A stretch of 25,248 bases of DNA, from positions 1 through 25,248 of the IMG/VR virus record IMGVR_UViG_2609459844_000006; one strand, given 5' to 3'. The number at the start of each line of letters is the position of its first letter. Positions within the stretch are counted from its first letter, which is position 1. The notes below the pieces were generated by a model, which saw only the letters and a program-made list of their open reading frames with translations, had not been told where the DNA came from and searched no databases. Source of the DNA: a virus. Lineage: Duplodnaviria; Heunggongvirae; Uroviricota; Caudoviricetes. Both the position numbers and the translations under genes were made by a program. Of the stretch, positions 2,417-8,323 are shown piece after piece.

Positions 2417-3042
2417 AGCGCTACTCCTTCGCGAAGTTGGGCGGCGAACTCGCAAACTGTTACACCACCTTCCTCTGTGTAATCTGCTGACGAGATATGC
2501 AGACCGTGGACAATACTTCCGTCGTCATGTTGGATGTTGCCAACCCACAACAGTCCGTCAGTAAAATCACCGTACCCGGATTCATGGCCGTCACCGCATT
2601 GCGAGCAAATAGACTCAATGTCGGATGGGTCAAGAAAGATTTGTTGAGGCACGAGCACGTAACCTTCAGGGATTGCACCTGCCCGCACTTCAGCCAGGAA
2701 AGCGTCGGTGGCTGGGGTTTTGCAGTAGGCATCACGCAAGGCTGGCATGCACTTATCCATCATCATTTCCATTTTCCCTGCTTCAGCAGCAGCCCAATGA
2801 GCCAGGGTTTCTTTTGCCGCTGCCTTCAGCGCCGCATTCTCAGCAACTACCGCCGCCAGCTGCCTGCACTTGCTCTCGGCTGCTTCCAGTTCATTCAATA
2901 GCGCCAGCACAGTGGCAGGGTTAGCGGCGGCGATGAATCGCTTATTGGCCTCGATGCCTTTCGTGTAACGCTTGATGATGCCAAGCTCGTGGGCATCAGT
3001 TGCTAACTGGCGCAGCGCCGCATATTTGTTGAGTGCTGTCAT
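2413..3042 (-). CDS. Ea22-like early protein (coiled-coil N-terminus)
   Basis: 209-aa ORF; Ala/Glu-rich N-terminal coiled-coil-like region followed by Cys/His-containing C-terminal domain, resembling lambdoid ead/Ea22-family proteins; family call from memory only. Confidence 0.5.
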   Translation of the reverse strand: MTALNKYAALRQLATDAHELGIIKRYTKGIEANKRFIAAANPATVLALLNELEAAESKCRQLAAVVAENAALKAAAKETLAHWAAAEAGKMEMMMDKCMPALRDAYCKTPATDAFLAEVRAGAIPEGYVLVPQQIFLDPSDIESICSQCGDGHESGYGDFTDGLLWVGNIQHDDGSIVHGLHISSADYTEEGGVTVCEFAAQLREGVAL

Positions 3043-3293
3043 TGGGCTGATTCCTGTCTGGCTCTATTCAACAACTGGTTAAACATCATGGTTAGGCTGT
3101 TACTGCACCCAAATGGCATATCGTTAACACGGTATGTTGGAATGCCCTTGCGAACACCTGACTTCACGATCCGGCCGGTGCCATAGAGTTGCGATAATGC
3201 GCCAGCGACCGCGGGTGTCTTTTTGTTCATACCTTTGGCGATTTCACCGCTGGTGGTATTCGGATGAGCCTGGAGATATTCAAATACGGTCAT
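3039..3293 (-). CDS. hypothetical small protein, possibly DNA-binding
   Basis: 84-aa ORF in operon context with ATGA-type overlaps on both sides. Confidence 0.5.
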   Translation of the reverse strand: MTVFEYLQAHPNTTSGEIAKGMNKKTPAVAGALSQLYGTGRIVKSGVRKGIPTYRVNDMPFGCSNSLTMMFNQLLNRARQESAQ

Positions 3294-3457
3294 GGCGTTT
3301 TACCTTTACGTTCCTGTTCCAGTTGCACCAGAGACTCTTTTAATGCTGCGAACGTAGCGTCCAGTCTGGTGGCAACTTCGCGCATAAGCGGTGCATGCTT
3401 TGGTGGCAGTTCAGCAACGGAGGCAAAAGCCTCCGTAACGAGTTCTTTTACCTTCAT
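3290..3457 (-). CDS. hypothetical small protein (55 aa)
   Basis: Not in the ORF track (below 60 aa). Hand-translated MKVKELVTEAFASVAELPPKHAPLMREVATRLDATFAALKESLVQLEQERKGKTP; start overlaps stop of upstream HD gene (ATGA) and its stop overlaps the next start, suggesting translational coupling. Confidence 0.35.
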   Translation of the reverse strand: MKVKELVTEAFASVAELPPKHAPLMREVATRLDATFAALKESLVQLEQERKGKTP

Positions 3458-3993
3458 GCGGCGCATTGGCGCAGCTCCGCCAGTTCGTTAAAGCGGTTCA
3501 TGAACAGGCCATAGGATTGACCTGGACGGAGAGGGATAACCTGAACGAGATCAGAGCAGGGAATACCTTCGAGAATTTCCCACTTCGAACCGTTATCGAT
3601 TTCCAGATCACGGCGCTCGGTAGCTAACATGGTTAGATCGGCGTATTTCACGACGGCAGATTGCTCAAGCGGGATACCGAATTTAAAGCGGATAAGACCA
3701 TCAACATAAGTTTCCATGCGCTGGTAGTCAGGCAGCAAGGCTTTGAGCGGGGCTGGAATATCCTGGCAATATGCCTCCGCAGCGTCGTGCATCAACGCTT
3801 CAAAGGCGAACTCTGGCGGCACAATCTGGCTTACAAGCACAGAGTGCTGGGCCACGCTGTAGAACTCTGGCAGATGCCCAGCGAATCGACAGATGTTGGA
3901 AAGAGCAGTCGCGATATCCTCAACATCGATATCGTCGATTGTGGCGGTCAGGTAGTTAAATTTTTTACCGGATAATGTCTGAATGTAGCTCAT
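3454..3993 (-). CDS. HD-domain phosphohydrolase (YfdR-like, 5'-deoxynucleotidase-type)
   Basis: H..HD motif (ALMHDAAEAY) typical of HD-superfamily metal-dependent phosphohydrolases; start set at internal ATG 3993 preceded by GGAGAAAACC. Confidence 0.6.
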   Translation of the reverse strand: MSYIQTLSGKKFNYLTATIDDIDVEDIATALSNICRFAGHLPEFYSVAQHSVLVSQIVPPEFAFEALMHDAAEAYCQDIPAPLKALLPDYQRMETYVDGLIRFKFGIPLEQSAVVKYADLTMLATERRDLEIDNGSKWEILEGIPCSDLVQVIPLRPGQSYGLFMNRFNELAELRQCAA

Positions 3994-4086
3994 GGTTTTC
4001 TCCATATTGGCGCGCTGCACCACGCAGATTTTGGTTGCACGAATCCCTCGCCGGATGGCGATAATTAATGGAATTACGCTTCAATA

Positions 4087-4121: not shown

Positions 4122-4949
4122 TTAGGCTTTAAAGTTACCGATGAAAGTTTCCACTGATTCACCTTCGAACTTGCTGATCAGCAAATCGCGGAATTCATTG
4201 GCGATAGCTTCTTCCTGGGCTTCCAGTTGTACTATGCGCAGTACAAAACGAGGTTCATCACCTGTAAGCAAACTGTTGCGTAAGCTAAAGCGGCGTTCGC
4301 CTAAACCTTCATACGGCACACATTTGAATTCGAACGCTACCGGCATTACGTCTTTGCTGCTGGCTTCAATACTCTGCATAAGCGATTTTTTGCCGCTGAA
4401 ATCGCTGTCTTCATGATCCTGCTGGGTTGCCTGCTGGATAGTTATACGACGAACAGCCTGGGCGGCTTGTGAAATCTGCATCGTATTGCCATCAGCATCG
4501 AACGCCAGCAGGTAATCGCTCCAGTCTTCCAGCCACTCGGCGATCTGTTTTTGTTTCAGACGCTCACCGTTGATCTGGAGAAGAGCACGGAAAGGTGCGG
4601 TCTGTTTCAGGGTGATGGATGCAACATTGTCCGCATGACCGGGGTTATCGAGTGTGCCGATGTTGAACACTGAACGGGCGGTCATGTTGTCAGCGTCAAT
4701 AAAGCAACGAGCTGGCTCACTTTCGCTGGCATAGCCTTTTGAATAACGAGCAAAATCTTCAATGCTGGTCGTGGTCATGGCACCGCGGAAGCGGAAACGC
4801 TCCAGAGAAAAACGCTCGAGGCTTTCAATGCCGGTACCCTCTGGCAGTAATGCGGTCGGGCAAGCCAGGCCATGAATATCATTCAGGTGGTAGCCAGAAA
4901 GGACCAGGTCTTTTACCTGCTGAAATGTACCGCTGTCTAACTGGGACAT
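4122..4949 (-). CDS. YfdQ-like prophage protein (DUF2303-type), function unknown
   Basis: 275-aa ORF with AAGGAA SD; gene order P-Q-HD matches the yfdP-yfdQ-yfdR arrangement of E. coli CPS-53-type prophages (from memory). Confidence 0.55.
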   Translation of the reverse strand: MSQLDSGTFQQVKDLVLSGYHLNDIHGLACPTALLPEGTGIESLERFSLERFRFRGAMTTTSIEDFARYSKGYASESEPARCFIDADNMTARSVFNIGTLDNPGHADNVASITLKQTAPFRALLQINGERLKQKQIAEWLEDWSDYLLAFDADGNTMQISQAAQAVRRITIQQATQQDHEDSDFSGKKSLMQSIEASSKDVMPVAFEFKCVPYEGLGERRFSLRNSLLTGDEPRFVLRIVQLEAQEEAIANEFRDLLISKFEGESVETFIGNFKA

Positions 4950-5005: not shown

Positions 5006-5377
5006 TCACTGAGCCGCTTTAAGCTTTCCGTCCACCGCGCCGGTGATGCCGAAGAGTTGCCCCTGATCCTCCTGGAGGATGGTGAGCTTCCCGCCTTTGT
5101 TGACCCACATTGGTGTTTCGGTGGTGTCTTCTTCAGAGACTTTGCCGCGCGGTGTTGGGGTGCTGTATTTCAGCTTGTGCTTGATCTTGACGCGTTTCTC
5201 TTCGACAGAGTTACCCATGCGCTCAAAATCAAAGGTGAGAACTACCTGGCCTTTGTTACCGTTGCTCAGAACGCCGAGCGCAGTGGTATTAAGCGCTCCT
5301 GCTATTTTGTTCATGAACACTCCGGCATCCAGTTCGCTCAGAAAGTCGGGTACTACGGTCGTGCGGTCATTACTCAT
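5006..5377 (-). CDS. hypothetical prophage protein (YfdP-like position)
   Basis: 123-aa ORF, GAGGG SD 8 nt upstream; first gene after the long ORF-free leader. Confidence 0.5.
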   Translation of the reverse strand: MSNDRTTVVPDFLSELDAGVFMNKIAGALNTTALGVLSNGNKGQVVLTFDFERMGNSVEEKRVKIKHKLKYSTPTPRGKVSEEDTTETPMWVNKGGKLTILQEDQGQLFGITGAVDGKLKAAQ

Positions 5378-6383
5378 GGTTTTACCCTCGTTAAGGCGGC
5401 TGCCACCGCCGTGTTTTCTCCATACACAACAGAGAAGGACACCTGCATTGGTCGGCGGCTTGCAGAGACCGCTGTCTTTTTGTCCGGACGGGTTGGGTTA
5501 TGAGCCCGTCACACGGTGATACCCTTTTCTGTTGCGTAAAAAGGGCGGTACCGAGGTAGAACATTATCTTCGTCCCCCTTGCATAAGGTTGAAGACCCTG
5601 GTACCGCCAAGACTACACACAGCAATACTGGAACTACGGTTATCACGGTCCTAAGCGTGATTTGGTTGTGGTGGCCGGTACTACGATATTCCGGCATGGG
5701 TTGATTATCAGTGACGCACCCTTTCGGGACACTCCCTCACGGTTTAGCGCATCAGCCTGCGCATTCACCACAACGAAGAGAGCACTGCCGGTGTTCGAAT
5801 CGAACGAACCTTTTCCCTGCCCAACCCTCCCAACAGAATGGGACTGTCTGGAATCGAACCAGCACTTATGCCTTGCTCGTCAATGCTCTCGTCGTTGTGC
5901 CCTGAAAAAGGCTGGCGGTGACCGGACAAGTGGGAAAACACCGGGCCGCCAGAACAGGGAAGTACTTGTTATTGCTTTGGCCTGCTTTTAACCACATCAG
6001 GCGCGGTGGTAGGTATCTTCGGGCGGGGTGCTAAGGGGGTGATTAGCCCTTGCCCTTAACACTCCTGCTGGTTTTGGTATTCCTGGCTTGGGTATCGCCA
6101 CCAGCTATAGGAATTTGACTACGAGTTGCGGTTAATCAGACCGCGTCTCTGTTACCCCTCCCGAAGACACCTGTCAGCGAATCATCCGGTTATTCATACG
6201 CCACCGGCGGCTACTTCGTGGGCGTCCTGCCTGTTCGCTGTTGCTTATGGCTAGTTGTAATGTTGTAAATCGTAATAACACCTTTAAGGTGTAATTTAGT
6301 TGTGAATAATGGTTATGTCAACAACTTTATGTGGTTTGATTGTGGGGCGTCTGAATGTAAGGATGTTCAAAAAAGGAGGCTGT

Positions 6384-7265
6384 ATGGAAGACAAGCTCTA
6401 CGTTTTTAACTACACACAAAATAGAAATAAGCTTTTTGCAAATTTAATCAGCATTATTGATGGGATTCTTGCCGATGGACATGTGCGGGATGAAGAGGTG
6501 CTATATCTTGATACTTGGCTACTTGAAGCCAACCAAACCATTAGAAATGGTGTTATCAAGAGTCTAAGTGTTAGGGTCTCTAAAATACTGGCCGATGGTG
6601 TTGTTTCTGATGATGAGCGTGGTGAATTAAAACTGCATCTTAATGATATACAAAGACAAATACTCGATATACCCGATGTGGATTTATTCTCCAGTGAGTC
6701 AGATCTGCATCTGTTGAATGGTCTTTGCAAGGGTTTAATATCAGATCGAACCTTAAGTGAAGAAGAAGTGAGATACCTGGACTGGTGGTTAACACAGAAC
6801 GGGGCGCTAAAAAGTAATTATCCAGGAAAGGAACTATACGCTTTAGTAAAAGAGATTCTGAGCGATGGGATCATCACCACTGAAGAAAGTGAAAATCTAC
6901 ACAAGGCGCTGGTAGATTTTACTGGTTGTGACCTTGCAAGCGGCGTCGTAGATGGGCTTTCTACTAAATTACCATTAGATAATACTGCTGAAGTTTCTGT
7001 TGAAAATAAAACATTTTGCTTAACGGGTGTTTTTTTGGCAGGAAAGAGAGCACATGTTGAAGACCTAATTAAAAAGAATAATGGACTGATTTCCAGCGGA
7101 ATCACAAAGAGAATTGATTTTCTCGTAATTGGTACTCTTTCCTCGCGTGACTGGAAGTTCTCCAGTCACGGAAGGAAAATAGAAAAAGCAGTCTCATATA
7201 GAGATGATGAAGGGGCTAAGTTAAAAATCATTTCAGAAGAAATGCTTTTTCACGCTCTACCATGA
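6384..7265 (+). CDS. tandem-repeat protein with C-terminal BRCT domain (function unknown)
   Basis: Start at ATG 6384 with perfect AAGGAGG SD. Four ~45-aa acidic repeats (ILADGHVRDEEVLYLDTWL / ILADGVVSDDERGELKLHL / LISDRTLSEEEVRYLDWWL / ILSDGIITTEESENLHKAL). C-terminus (NKTFCLTGVF..GKRAHVEDLIKKNNGLISSGITKRIDFLVIG..RDWKF..KLKIISEEMLF) matches the BRCT pattern seen in NAD-dependent ligases. AT-rich relative to flanks. Confidence 0.6.
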   Translation: MEDKLYVFNYTQNRNKLFANLISIIDGILADGHVRDEEVLYLDTWLLEANQTIRNGVIKSLSVRVSKILADGVVSDDERGELKLHLNDIQRQILDIPDVDLFSSESDLHLLNGLCKGLISDRTLSEEEVRYLDWWLTQNGALKSNYPGKELYALVKEILSDGIITTEESENLHKALVDFTGCDLASGVVDGLSTKLPLDNTAEVSVENKTFCLTGVFLAGKRAHVEDLIKKNNGLISSGITKRIDFLVIGTLSSRDWKFSSHGRKIEKAVSYRDDEGAKLKIISEEMLFHALP

Positions 7266-7943
7266 ACGTGAAGACCAGAACACGCGACCAATAACGTGTA
7301 TTCTGGCTCTTCTTTCATCAAAGTTGAGTACTTCATCCGGGTACTCTTCTTTGTTGAAACTCCGCAGTATCAAACCACCATCTGGTTGATTGATAAGAAC
7401 TTTAACTCGAAGTAAAACTCCATCTCTAACAGCGTATAAATCACCATCTCTGATAGGTTTCGACTGTGACATGTCAATCGCGACATGATCCCCATTATTC
7501 AATACTGGCAAAAGGCTGTTGCCCCAAATCTTTACGATTCTTGCGTTAGCAGGACTGACTCCAGCTTTTCTAAGATCGAAACGACGAAGAGGGAACGAAT
7601 CAACAACTGATTCCACAATTTCGGCTTCACATCCATTGCCAGCAGAGAACTCAACATCGAGAACGGGTATGTTGGCAAATACTTCAGGATCAAGTTTTGC
7701 TTCTTCAAGTTCCTCAACTACAAAATCAGAAATAGAGCCATTCTCCTCAATTCCGAGCTGTAGCCATTTTTGGGATACATCTAAAGCTTTCGCAATATCT
7801 TTGATCTTTCTAGGTTGAAGCGTATCTCCATTTTCAATTTTCGCCACAGATTGTTGAGACAGGCCTATTAGCTCGGCTAACTGAGCCTGGCTCATGCCTT
7901 TCTTCTCTCTAGCTATTTTTAGTCGTTCCGCAAGTGTATTCAC
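7257..7943 (-). CDS. cI: CI-type prophage repressor (HTH_XRE + S24 LexA-like peptidase domain)
   Basis: GTG start 7943 with AGGGGG SD 7 nt upstream; N-terminal HTH (LAERLKIAREKKGMSQAQLAELIGLSQQSVAKIENG) and C-terminal autocleavage-type domain; divergent from a Cro-like gene across operator repeats. Confidence 0.8.
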   Translation of the reverse strand: MNTLAERLKIAREKKGMSQAQLAELIGLSQQSVAKIENGDTLQPRKIKDIAKALDVSQKWLQLGIEENGSISDFVVEELEEAKLDPEVFANIPVLDVEFSAGNGCEAEIVESVVDSFPLRRFDLRKAGVSPANARIVKIWGNSLLPVLNNGDHVAIDMSQSKPIRDGDLYAVRDGVLLRVKVLINQPDGGLILRSFNKEEYPDEVLNFDERRARIHVIGRVFWSSRSW

Positions 7944-8080
7944 AACTTTACCCCCTGTATTAGGAGAGATTACAACTTTATGTTTTAGCTTTCCAACACC
8001 TAAAAGTTGTGGTAAAAGTTGTTTAGGTTGTATGATCAATGGTGCCAACAACTTTTACCTCAAACCACAGGAGAAAAACT
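7944..8080. promoter_or_regulatory. immunity-region operator/promoter region (OR-like) with repeated CAACTTT half-sites
   Basis: Five copies of the 8-mer CAACTTT(T/A) or its complement AAAAGTTG (7943-7950, 7973-7980, 8002-8009, 8014-8021, 8048-8055) between divergent cI and cro-like starts. Confidence 0.55.
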
Positions 8081-8323
8081 ATGACACCTGAGCAGTTAGC
8101 CCTTTCAGAGGCAATTGAAACTGCTGGTGGCCAGTCTGAGTTAGCCCGGAAACTAACTGCAAGTTCCGGGAAGGAAGTTAAACAACAACAGGTATGGAAC
8201 TGGCTCAACAGAGAAAAAAGGTCGCCAATAAAGCAATCTCAGTACATTGAGAGCGTTACTGGCATCCCAAAAGAAAGACTGCGTCCTGATGTTTTCCAAA
8301 AGTCTACAGATTCAGCAGCTTAA
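8081..8323 (+). CDS. Cro-like small HTH regulator
   Basis: 80-aa ORF from ATG 8081 with AGGAG SD; contains HTH-like segment (LSEAIETAGGQSELARKL); first rightward gene opposite cI. Confidence 0.55.
   Translation: MTPEQLALSEAIETAGGQSELARKLTASSGKEVKQQQVWNWLNREKRSPIKQSQYIESVTGIPKERLRPDVFQKSTDSAA

Follow-up and report, generated by a model that had tools for sequence, protein, structure and literature searches.

The DNA studied here, 25,248 nucleotides (nt) of the virus record IMGVR_UViG_2609459844_000006 and called the window below, is a lambdoid prophage in which about 1 kb at the head of the leftward early operon (positions 5378-6383) was noted to lack a convincing open reading frame (ORF). 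The genes to the left of this stretch lie on the minus strand and comprise the integrase (1-1128), an Ead/Ea22-like gene, a dNMP phosphatase-like gene (3454-4023), a DUF2303/YfdQ gene (4122-4949) and the phrog_204 gene (5006-5377), which encodes 123 amino acids (aa) from an ATG at 5377. To the right there is an AT-rich gene for a BRCT-domain protein on the plus strand (ATG at 6384, end at 7265). Beyond it are a gene for an S24/helix-turn-helix repressor of the CI type (7257-8051, minus) and a cro/YdaS-like gene (8039-8323, plus). The gap between the phrog_204 and BRCT genes is non-coding structured RNA and not a set of decayed genes. It is probably the untranslated leader of a CI-controlled early-left (pL) operon, built from concatenated, independently folding and exchangeable RNA domains, part of which would be terminated and processed by RNases into small RNAs.

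An ORF-free stretch behind a candidate pL promoter

The right end of the stretch contains the following element:

6321-6293, minus strand: candidate (predicted) pL promoter, -35 element TTGACA at 6321-6316, 17-nt spacer, -10 element TAAATT at 6298-6293

This candidate matches the sigma-70 consensus at 10 of 12 positions. The predicted transcript would start at about 6286 and run leftward to the ATG at 5377. The promoter overlaps a repeat, ACAACTTT, that is found again in the cI-cro intergenic region (7972-8063); the repeat TGTCAACAACTTTATGT (6316-6332) recurs between cI and cro at 7972-7983, 8007-8023 and 8043-8063. Such recurrence is what OL and OR operators should show, and together the promoter and the OL/OR-like repeat suggest that the ORF-free region is the leader of a CI-controlled leftward operon. 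The original prediction had put the stretch at the place of pL and N in lambdoid phages, and the sigma-70 match, the operator-like repeats and the cI and cro-like neighbours all agree with this. The segment 6300-6383, at the right end of the noted range, falls outside the RNA and consists of promoter/operator DNA and the ribosome-binding region of the BRCT gene.

The longest ORFs between the phrog_204 and BRCT genes have 109 and 64 aa on the plus strand and 62, 58 and 57 aa on the minus strand; the ORF list for both strands of 5378-6300 contains no credible ORF and none above 109 aa. A Pfam scan of all ORFs of at least 34 aa in the region gave zero matches. The corresponding PHROG scan gave two partial matches only (22 and 41 residues), both inside RNA segments conserved at the nucleotide level, and the two PHROG families concerned are, judging from these sequences, built from spurious ORF calls. 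An N-like gene was found neither in the ORF list nor among the region ORFs scanned against Pfam and PHROG. No reading frame is conserved across the leaders of related phages, in which ORF positions and frames differ. The GC content is 0.52-0.54 over 5250-6300 versus 0.38-0.41 in the adjoining BRCT gene. Hence the earlier statements that the region holds no convincing ORF, holds no N-like ORF and is not AT-rich are all borne out. About 900 nt without an ORF is not improbable in random sequence; what makes the stretch non-trivial is its structure, the conservation of that structure and the compact phage context.

Among the checks proposed at the outset were an Rfam scan and an alignment with related prophages. 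In the first, Rfam 15 covariance models at gathering scores gave 0 matches over the whole window, and with E up to 10 there were three chance-level matches in 5200-6500 (DicF, BLV and transfer-messenger RNA (tmRNA) fragments). The second revealed covariation rather than pseudogene decay, as described below. Over the window and 80 related loci ARAGORN called no tRNA; its single call is the tRNA-Arg of phage SPN9TCW. No boxA or nut site was found in the leader, and boxA matches elsewhere in the window are at chance level.

Seven RNA domains and their exchange among phages

Eighty viral contigs were collected through the neighbouring phrog_204 protein and the window was mapped onto them; occurrences are counted among 83 loci. 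On the transcript the leader has the order D-X-C-B1-B2-B3-A, and its features are as follows:

Domain D, 6239-6176, minus strand: 64 nt, three helices, P1 AGCGAA/UUCGCU, P2 GGC-AGGAC-GCC and P3 CCGGU/ACCGG; 63 of 83 loci
Domain X, 6171-6012, minus strand: about 160 nt, closing helix of 17-18 bp formed by GGUGUCUUCGGGAGGGGU (6171-6154) with CACCCCGCCCGAAGAUACC (6030-6012), inverted repeat I1; 38 of 83 loci
Domain C, 6002-5905, minus strand: hairpin GCCUGAUGUGGUUAAAAGCAGGC (6002-5980), then terminator-like hairpin CUGGCGGCCCGG...CCGGUCACCGCCAG with CCUUUUU (5952-5905); 57 of 83 loci
Domain B1, 5899-5769, minus strand: 131-nt four-way junction with a 20-bp closing helix; 28 of 83 loci
Domain B2, 5774-5665, minus strand: cloverleaf-like, closed by GUUGUGGUG/CACCACAAC, inverted repeat I19, 5′ strand overlapping the 3′ strand of the B1 helix; 6 of 83 loci
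Domain B3, 5661-5538, minus strand: small hairpin AUCACG...CGUGAU (5661-5642), seed UUGCUGUGUGUAGUCUUGGCGG (5625-5604), hairpin GGCGGUACC...GGUACCGCC with CUUUUU (5608-5538); 39 of 83 loci
Domain A, 5535-5395, minus strand: long helix of GCAACAGAAAAGGGUAUCACC (5535-5515) with GGUGUCCUUCUCUGUUGUGU (5443-5424), hairpin GGCGGUGGCAGCCGCC (5410-5395); 80 of 83 loci
57-codon ORF, 5564-5391, minus strand: MFYLGTALFTQQKR..., starting in the B3 hairpin loop behind the Shine-Dalgarno (SD) sequence AAGGGGGA, 8 nt before the ATG

The helices are maintained by compensatory change. RNAalifold consensus structures have 30 pairs in X (31 distinct homologues, 97.7% paired, 9 compensatory pairs), 30 pairs in A (60 homologues, 98.9%, 7 compensatory) and 32 pairs in B3 (13 homologues, 97.5%, 7 compensatory). 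Domain C (48 homologues) is 99.3% paired with 1 compensatory pair. The B2 fold, with 30 pairs of which 3 are compensatory, is less certain because only 7 homologues are available. B1 and D were examined in alignments of diverse copies. In the B1 alignment (A1, 35 copies), 97.3% of the cells of 36 pairs are paired, versus 36-51% when the partners are slid, and 14 of the 36 pairs have changed on both sides. In the D alignment (A2, 36 copies), the values are 94.6% for 14 pairs versus 23-44%, with double changes in 11 of the 14. None of 500 column shuffles was as good in either case.

The strand of the RNA also follows from these alignments. G·U pairs greatly outnumber the A·C combinations in X (82 vs 15), A (199 vs 6), B3 (50 vs 3) and C (9 vs 2), an asymmetry expected only if the minus strand is the RNA, and the B1 covariance model R1 scores 163.7 bits on the minus strand versus 32.7 on the plus strand. 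Folding energy is uninformative on this point because both strands reach z of about -5, so the strand was taken from the G·U versus A·C counts and the model scores. Compared with dinucleotide shuffles, the 909-nt stretch has z = -4.8 on the minus and -5.6 on the plus strand (0 of 20 shuffles as good). Single domains range from -2.1 to -3.4, for example B3 (-3.4), the C hairpin at 5952-5905 (-24.5 kcal/mol, -2.9), A (-2.4) and B2 (-41.2 kcal/mol, -2.1).

The suggestion of a structured leader or non-coding RNA is thus upheld by strong covariation on the transcribed strand, and its alternative, decayed early genes, is contradicted by the lack of protein-family remnants and of a conserved frame and by the compensatory changes in the helices. 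The hairpin at 5522-5545 that had been singled out is present, but it is not kept in relatives. In it the U-tract of the B3 terminator pairs with the A-rich 5′ strand of the stem in domain A; both strands are constrained by other, better-supported helices, and the hairpin is a by-product of these two structures. What the present analysis adds is a mosaic of at least seven domains, with DicF-like and STnc1310-like terminated small RNAs in it, and the secondary nature of this hairpin.

The domains behave as cassettes. Each has sharp boundaries, is present or absent independently of the others and is surrounded by its own inverted repeat, and the boundaries coincide with helix ends, not with ORF ends. 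In megablast searches the region matches 111 phage records in short blocks of 85-99% identity, and no match spans 80% of the query; parts of it are present in 1,698 of 5,426 complete E. coli genomes. The entire B block is missing from E. coli MSB1_9D (L002) and from L006, where C is joined to A at the common CACAAC. The orientation of the cassettes relative to the promoter is constant in nearly all loci. An equivalent unannotated gap is found in Stx2a_1447, EPP-1 and phiNP; in other phages, gene callers placed 'hypothetical proteins' over parts of the region.

Some slots are especially variable. The X slot is empty in L004 and is occupied by a 121-aa ORF of the ClpX-type zinc-finger kind in L002 and in matches from E. 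coli Nissle. Many relatives have this ORF in the slot (in L002 at 2838-3203), annotated 'ClpX C4-type zinc finger protein'; no other gene comes between it and D, and its position is that of N. The same annotation also lies under matches in E. coli Nissle 1917 and other genomes. In Salmonella phage SPN9TCW the B2 slot is taken by a real tRNA-Arg(UCU), elsewhere by different cassettes, and the apical inserts of domain A are wholly different among relatives. One such insert, about 70 nt long in L073/L076/L078, occurs as its reverse complement in L081, indicating an invertible or doubly inserted palindromic element. The motif CACAAC/GUUGUG forms the outer base pairs of B1, B2 and A and is found at the junctions of all B and A cassettes (window 5769-5777); here the 3′ strand of the B1 helix overlaps the 5′ strand of the B2 helix, and the two helices compete. 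CACAAC/GUUGUG might thereby serve cassette exchange as a recombination microhomology, or act as an RNase site common to the domains or as a structural switch. No earlier description of D and B1 as RNA families, or of the cassette architecture, was found in a literature coverage that was incomplete, which makes this absence weak evidence.

Domains resembling small RNAs and tRNA

Two domains of the leader end in a hairpin followed by a U-tract and have counterparts among known RNAs. For domain C the counterpart is STnc1310, a 74-nt non-coding RNA seen by RNA-seq downstream of the cI gene of prophage ST64B (D23580 2099207-2099280; Owen et al., PMC7067206), which peroxide and nitric oxide induce jointly with the two genes that follow (PMC7067206). 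Its table coordinates correspond to 326-399 nt past cI. These were placed at 2878-2805 of the ST64B record (L206) because the cI-to-sb37 distance matches (1187 vs 1186 nt). The mapped 3′ end then lies in the U-run after the hairpin CUGGCGGCCCG...CGGAAACCGCCAG, and the mapped 5′ end lies within the 3′ strand of an X-type closing helix, which is where double-strand cleavage would leave it. The C hairpin of the window (5952-5905) aligns locally with STnc1310. The two RNAs share their place in the leader, past cI and ahead of the sb37/sb36 homologues, and have the hairpin UUCUGGCGGCCCG...ACCGCCAGC(C)UUUU in common. Judging from the alignment, the C hairpin is a homologue of the 3′ hairpin and U-tract of STnc1310, and together with the mapping this indicates that in at least one phage a stable RNA ends at a C-type hairpin. 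The two differ in their 5′ parts, domain C being the longer, and STnc1310 is known only as an RNA-seq feature.

For domain B3 the counterpart is DicF, a small RNA concerned with cell division and metabolism, encoded in the dicBF operon of Qin, a prophage in E. coli K-12. The hairpin base UUGGCGGUA...CCGCCCUUUUU, followed by CUUUUU, is common to B3 and K-12 DicF. The terminator hairpins are UUGGCGGUACC...GGUACCGCCCUUUUU in the window and UUGGCGGUAUC...CUGCCGCCCUUUUU in K-12, and the 5′ strands are similar as well (UUGCUGUGUGUAGUCUUGGCGGUACCAG vs UUUCUGGUGACGUUUGGCGGUAUCAG). Among relatives the B3 stem covaries, being GGCGGUUAUCC/GGAUAACCGCC in L013 and GUCGGCGUC/GACGCCGAC in ST64B, with the seed unchanged. 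A covarying stem combined with a preserved seed is the pattern of a base-pairing small RNA with an intrinsic terminator. By sequence, then, B3 is DicF-like and diverged, and not a DicF member by the Rfam criterion.

The likeness extends to the operon. The dicBF operon, too, is a repressor-controlled leftward early operon in a lambdoid (pro)phage. Its small RNA, whose terminator hairpin is GGCGGUA...CCGCCCUUUUU, lies several hundred nt past the promoter and before the protein genes, with a structured domain upstream of it and a B2-type relative downstream. From the dicBF transcript, RNase III yields a 190-nt form of DicF and RNase E a 53-nt form (PMC10448788). Qin differs in carrying three small ORFs (ydfABC) in place of the D, X and C domains of the window, in lacking D and B1, and in having a DicF loop of 23 nt versus 49 nt in B3 and an unlike seed. 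The B2-type relative resembles the ST64B domain and has the sequence GUGGUGAAUGCGGCUGAGCGCACGCGG...; it corresponds to an unannotated segment between dicF and dicB (L207 2436-2600, GUGAUGUGGUGAAUGCGGCUGAGCGCACGCGG...GGAGGCACCAGGCACUGCAUCAC) with its own closing helix. On this resemblance the dicBF transcript may contain a further conserved RNA domain. The Pas small RNAs described in a preprint were considered as a match and set aside, being located among capsid, tail and lysis genes, in another context.

Domain B1 has tRNA-like features. Two of its hairpins, GCUGG-UUCGAUU-CCAGA (5863-5846) and GUUCG-UUCGAUU-CGAAC (5810-5790), fit the tRNA T-arm consensus G-UUCRAUY-C, with a 5-bp stem, a UUCRAUY loop and a closing G-C pair. 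The remainder comprises one variable hairpin (5845-5827) and the invariant joining strands UUGACGAGCAAGGC and GGGCAGGGAAAAGG. An exact-word scan of viral contigs found 128 genuine B1 copies; in about half of them the B3 seed and terminator come 60-200 nt further on. B1 received no ARAGORN tRNA call and matches no Rfam family, the only match in the region being a 9-bit tmRNA T-arm fragment; searching Qin and HK022 with model R1 gave only a weak closing-helix resemblance of about 23 bits.

In Salmonella phages of the SPN1S type, B1 is found between the terminase and portal genes, fused 5′ of a tRNA-Arg(UCU) that occupies the B2 slot. The fusion, at 2428-2638 of SPN9TCW (L003) and also in SPN1S and SPC32H/N, lies on the strand opposite terminase and portal; the first three tRNA bases are part of the B1 closing helix, and after the tRNA comes a small hairpin of the B3 type. 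B1 thus resembles tRNA in its two T-arm consensus hairpins and in this fusion to a genuine tRNA-Arg, and differs from it in having no CCA acceptor stem, D arm or anticodon arm and in holding two T-arms in one four-way junction. A processing scaffold, a mimic of the tRNA elbow and a decoy for T-arm enzymes are guesses at its role. The leader as a whole recalls GOLLD and ROOL, which are also long, ornate, ORF-free prophage RNAs able to host a tRNA. It differs from these in giving no Rfam match, in being a string of separable cassettes and not one fold, and in belonging to Enterobacterales.

Domain D and the proposed working of the leader

Domain D is the first element of the leader. Its P2 and P3 helices are separated by the invariant single strand CCCACGAAGUAGCC, and the P3 loop GGCGUAUGAAUA is conserved; two single-stranded stretches, CCCACGAAGUAGC and GGCRUAYGAA, are invariant. 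D was found in 53 phage records, and among species-representative genomes its conserved core was present in 104 species, nearly all of them Enterobacterales. The 22-nt core also matched outside this order, in contigs with the labels Haloarchaeobius, Rhodospirillales, Chryseobacterium and Pseudomonas lundensis (L349, L355, L357 and L368), for which contamination, chance and real spread are all conceivable. D has no Rfam match.

D is a promoter-proximal element. Of 202 distinct contexts, 107 have a promoter match of at least 9/12 in the 90 nt upstream of D, compared with 3 and 1 in the control windows. In these 107 contexts the median distance from the end of the -10 element to P1 is 13 nt, which means that D normally begins at about +6 of the transcript. 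In SfV, ZF40, SPN3UB and Aeromonas phage pAEv1818, D lies 70-170 nt past the stop codon of a CI/DicA-type repressor gene, and the downstream genes vary; in ST64B the distance is about 120 nt. In the T5-like Providencia phage PR1 (L212), D is found in the leader of the pre-early operon, and a boxA-like CGCUCUUUAAAAA follows 6 nt after it.

Lambdoid phages are the textbook system for transcription antitermination, and HK022-type put RNAs suppress terminators without further factors, in dependence on the zinc-binding domain of the RNA polymerase β′ subunit. The putL and putR sites of HK022 are cis-acting antiterminator RNAs, each put consisting of two stem-loops (PMC9378689). Like putL, D is a structured RNA of roughly 65-75 nt (PMC9378689) close to an early promoter, being located in related phages at the very start of the pL transcript. 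The related phages with D also lack an N gene, and in the window terminators follow downstream of D. In phage O276, an annotated putL takes the place that D occupies; none of the 21 records found in the put search, which are all that it returned, is among the 40 listed of the 53 records found with D.

The lambda pL leader stands at the same position and is likewise untranslated and structured, its long helices preceding the first early-left gene. Antitermination by lambda N relies on boxA (YGCUCUUUA) and a boxB hairpin in the leader and on an Arg-rich N gene that comes first in the pL operon, whereas the window has no boxA, boxB or N-like ORF and has a leader of about 900 nt with many conserved domains. 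Some relatives of the window do carry an rrn-type boxA after D. A boxA of the form GCUCUUUAA or GCUCUUUAACAA with a preceding hairpin lies within 100 nt 3′ of D in 15 of 129 contexts, and never upstream of D or on the antisense strand. A hairpin-boxA module of the form AAAAAAGCGCCCnnnnGGACGCUU-(C/A)GCUCUUUAACAAUCUGG stands just 3′ of D in the lambdoid loci L221, L104, L111, L153, L254, L264, L282, L301 and L303. By its sequence this module suggests antitermination of the Nus-factor type in such N-less leaders, and its presence in some phages ties these leaders to elongation control, the window itself having no boxA.

From these features we infer termination, RNase processing and all functions in cis or trans as follows. 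Transcription would proceed from the promoter at 6321-6293 leftward through D-X-C-B1-B2-B3-A. The hairpins and U-tracts of C and B3 would stop part of the polymerases and so form the 3′ ends of small RNAs. The closing helices of X, B1 and A (17-20 bp) resemble RNase III substrates, and by analogy with dicBF, RNase III may cut the domains free and RNase E shorten them. Polymerases that pass both hairpins would reach the first protein gene at 5377, whose ribosome-binding site lies just past the last hairpin of domain A: this small covarying hairpin (5410-5395) immediately precedes the SD sequence GAGGG (5389-5385) of the phrog_204 gene. The action of D is most likely one in cis, exerted on the elongating polymerase or else on the transcript, and our favoured guess is that D would be a put-like suppressor of the downstream terminators.

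Several observations weigh against this account. The promoter, both 3′ ends and all processing sites in this prophage are predictions. The loops of the terminator-like hairpins of C and B3 are unusually large (15 and 49 nt), and a simple terminator scan reported neither. B3 scores 16.6 bits with the Rfam DicF model RF00039 against a threshold of 48 (E = 1.4, 5543-5621, minus), and its predicted pairing with E. coli ftsZ (-60 to +30, RNAduplex) is no better than with shuffles (fraction 0.90), in a weak test in which DicF itself gave 0.12. D of the window begins at about +47 rather than at about +6, the -10 element being 53-55 nt from P1, because of a 32-nt insertion. The put model that had been offered as one possibility for the region is settled neither way. 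D has the position of putL and a similar length, but there is no detectable sequence similarity between the two when they are read and folded side by side, and the D profile gave no match in the HK022 immunity region. D is formed by a closing helix and two internal hairpins around a junction, all supported by pair counts, whereas put has two long stem-loops; and HK022 carries putR in its rightward operon, whereas the D profile found one copy in the 25-kb window and no second copy in the rightward (pR) operon. A terminator directly after D is not a general rule, only 59 of 139 contexts having one within 300 nt, at scattered distances.

That D is not an antiterminator at all is a possibility to be taken seriously, if one somewhat short of even. 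D could instead stabilise the 5′ end or shield it from RNases, sense a ligand as an aptamer, or be bound by a host factor, for instance a Nus-factor partner. It is situated at the extreme 5′ end of transcripts, where stem-loops protect against 5′-end-dependent decay, and its invariant unpaired nucleotides are typical of aptamers and protein sites; where a boxA follows D (the 15 contexts above) and gives antitermination, D may serve otherwise. Yet a simple hairpin would be enough for stabilisation alone. No conserved expression platform was found after D, which speaks against a simple riboswitch, and D has no sequence match to any Rfam riboswitch. The evidence gives no firm discrimination between these roles and antitermination. 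A wider extension of the put-like reading is speculative and rather unlikely to hold in full. In it, D would represent a second, evolutionarily unrelated class of promoter-proximal phage RNA that acts in cis on host RNA polymerase without a phage protein, makes early transcription resistant to termination, and is used by many N-less lambdoid phages of Enterobacterales and in T5-like pre-early operons. The leader would then be a programmable 'RNA operon' with exchangeable trans-acting cargo RNAs that reprogram or disarm the host, the double-T-loop B1 among them as a possible tRNA-elbow mimic or tRNA-enzyme decoy.

Other explanations concern the leader as a whole. A small basic protein, or translation of the 57-codon ORF as a leader ORF coupled into the first gene, might be the actual product, with the RNA structures secondary; this seems unlikely. 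The ORF, which overlaps B3 and A and so counts against a purely untranslated leader, has a strong SD sequence and a stop codon 2 nt before the SD sequence of phrog_204; 11 of its 57 residues (19%) are Arg or Lys. Many relatives also keep a frame open through B3 and A, and the equivalent in ST64B is an ORF initiated at GTG. But relatives keep two different frames, a one-base change in the length of the U-run switching between them (L061/L070 vs L013), which makes a conserved protein unlikely. L001 is without the SD segment, and relatives without B3 have no start. The basic residues result from purine-rich helix strands, only residues 6-27 match phrog_33599, and the ORF covers only two of the seven domains. 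As a conserved protein the ORF is improbable; as a translated leader ORF it could still matter.

Less likely still is a feature of the DNA, that is, a recombination hotspot or palindromic insertions resembling miniature inverted-repeat transposable elements, whose hairpins matter in DNA or not at all. The sharp cassette boundaries with their CACAAC/GUUGUG microhomology, the B block as an insertion relative to L002 and L006, the domain A insert in both orientations (L073 vs L081) and the unrelated position of B1 in SPN1S-type phages would all fit, as would the fact that the plus strand folds thermodynamically as well as the minus strand, itself a point against the RNA reading. Selection is strand-specific, however: G·U is tolerated and the equivalent A·C is not, and model R1 scores 164 vs 33 bits. 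Unpaired junction nucleotides are invariant, the counterpart of one domain is an RNA detected in vivo, and nearly all loci keep one orientation to the promoter. Cassette mobility accounts for the mosaic but not for the conservation. The view that the region is what is left of an N-like gene or other delayed-early genes, its conservation being leftover coding sequence, is hardly credible. It draws on the lambdoid N position, the X slot, which in some relatives holds a real 121-aa ORF of the ClpX-type zinc-finger kind or different ORFs, the 'hypothetical proteins' annotated over parts of the region in other phages and the two partial PHROG matches. Against it, a tblastn search of the window with the relatives' zinc-finger protein gave no match and no remnant, the ORFs of at least 34 aa have no Pfam match, and the PHROG matches cover 22-41 residues only. 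There is no conserved frame, the substitutions are compensatory with G·U far above A·C, and the domains end where helices end.

If the gap is an RNA leader, as we think probable, it concerns a large group of N-less lambdoid phages (ST64B, SfV/SfII/SfIV, a Stx2a phage, the E. coli Nissle 1917 prophage), all with an unannotated gap of 0.8-1.1 kb at the head of the early-left operon. The analysis shows this gap to be a conserved modular RNA and links it to DicF and to the orphan Salmonella RNA-seq feature STnc1310. For D and B1, which have no Rfam family, the analysis provides coordinates, alignments and tested secondary structures. With matches in 1,698 of 5,426 E. coli genomes, any function in trans would affect many strains, including probiotic and Shiga-toxin-producing ones, and D is a testable candidate for the passage of polymerase through early terminators in phages without N. 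The mosaic also suggests that phages shuffle RNA 'morons' as they do protein morons.

The BRCT gene (6384-7265, plus strand) encodes 293 aa with a GC content of 0.39 and lies between cI and pL on the opposite strand, in the position of lambda rexAB. The ORF list extends its frame to 6309, and the SD-preceded ATG at 6384 was taken as the true start. Segments in the N-terminal part of the product are repeated, its C terminus holds a BRCT domain (Pfam E = 1.2e-5), and it matches phrog_3989, a family of unknown function, over its full length. From its position and sequence it looks like a moron, and would be a candidate superinfection-exclusion or defence gene.

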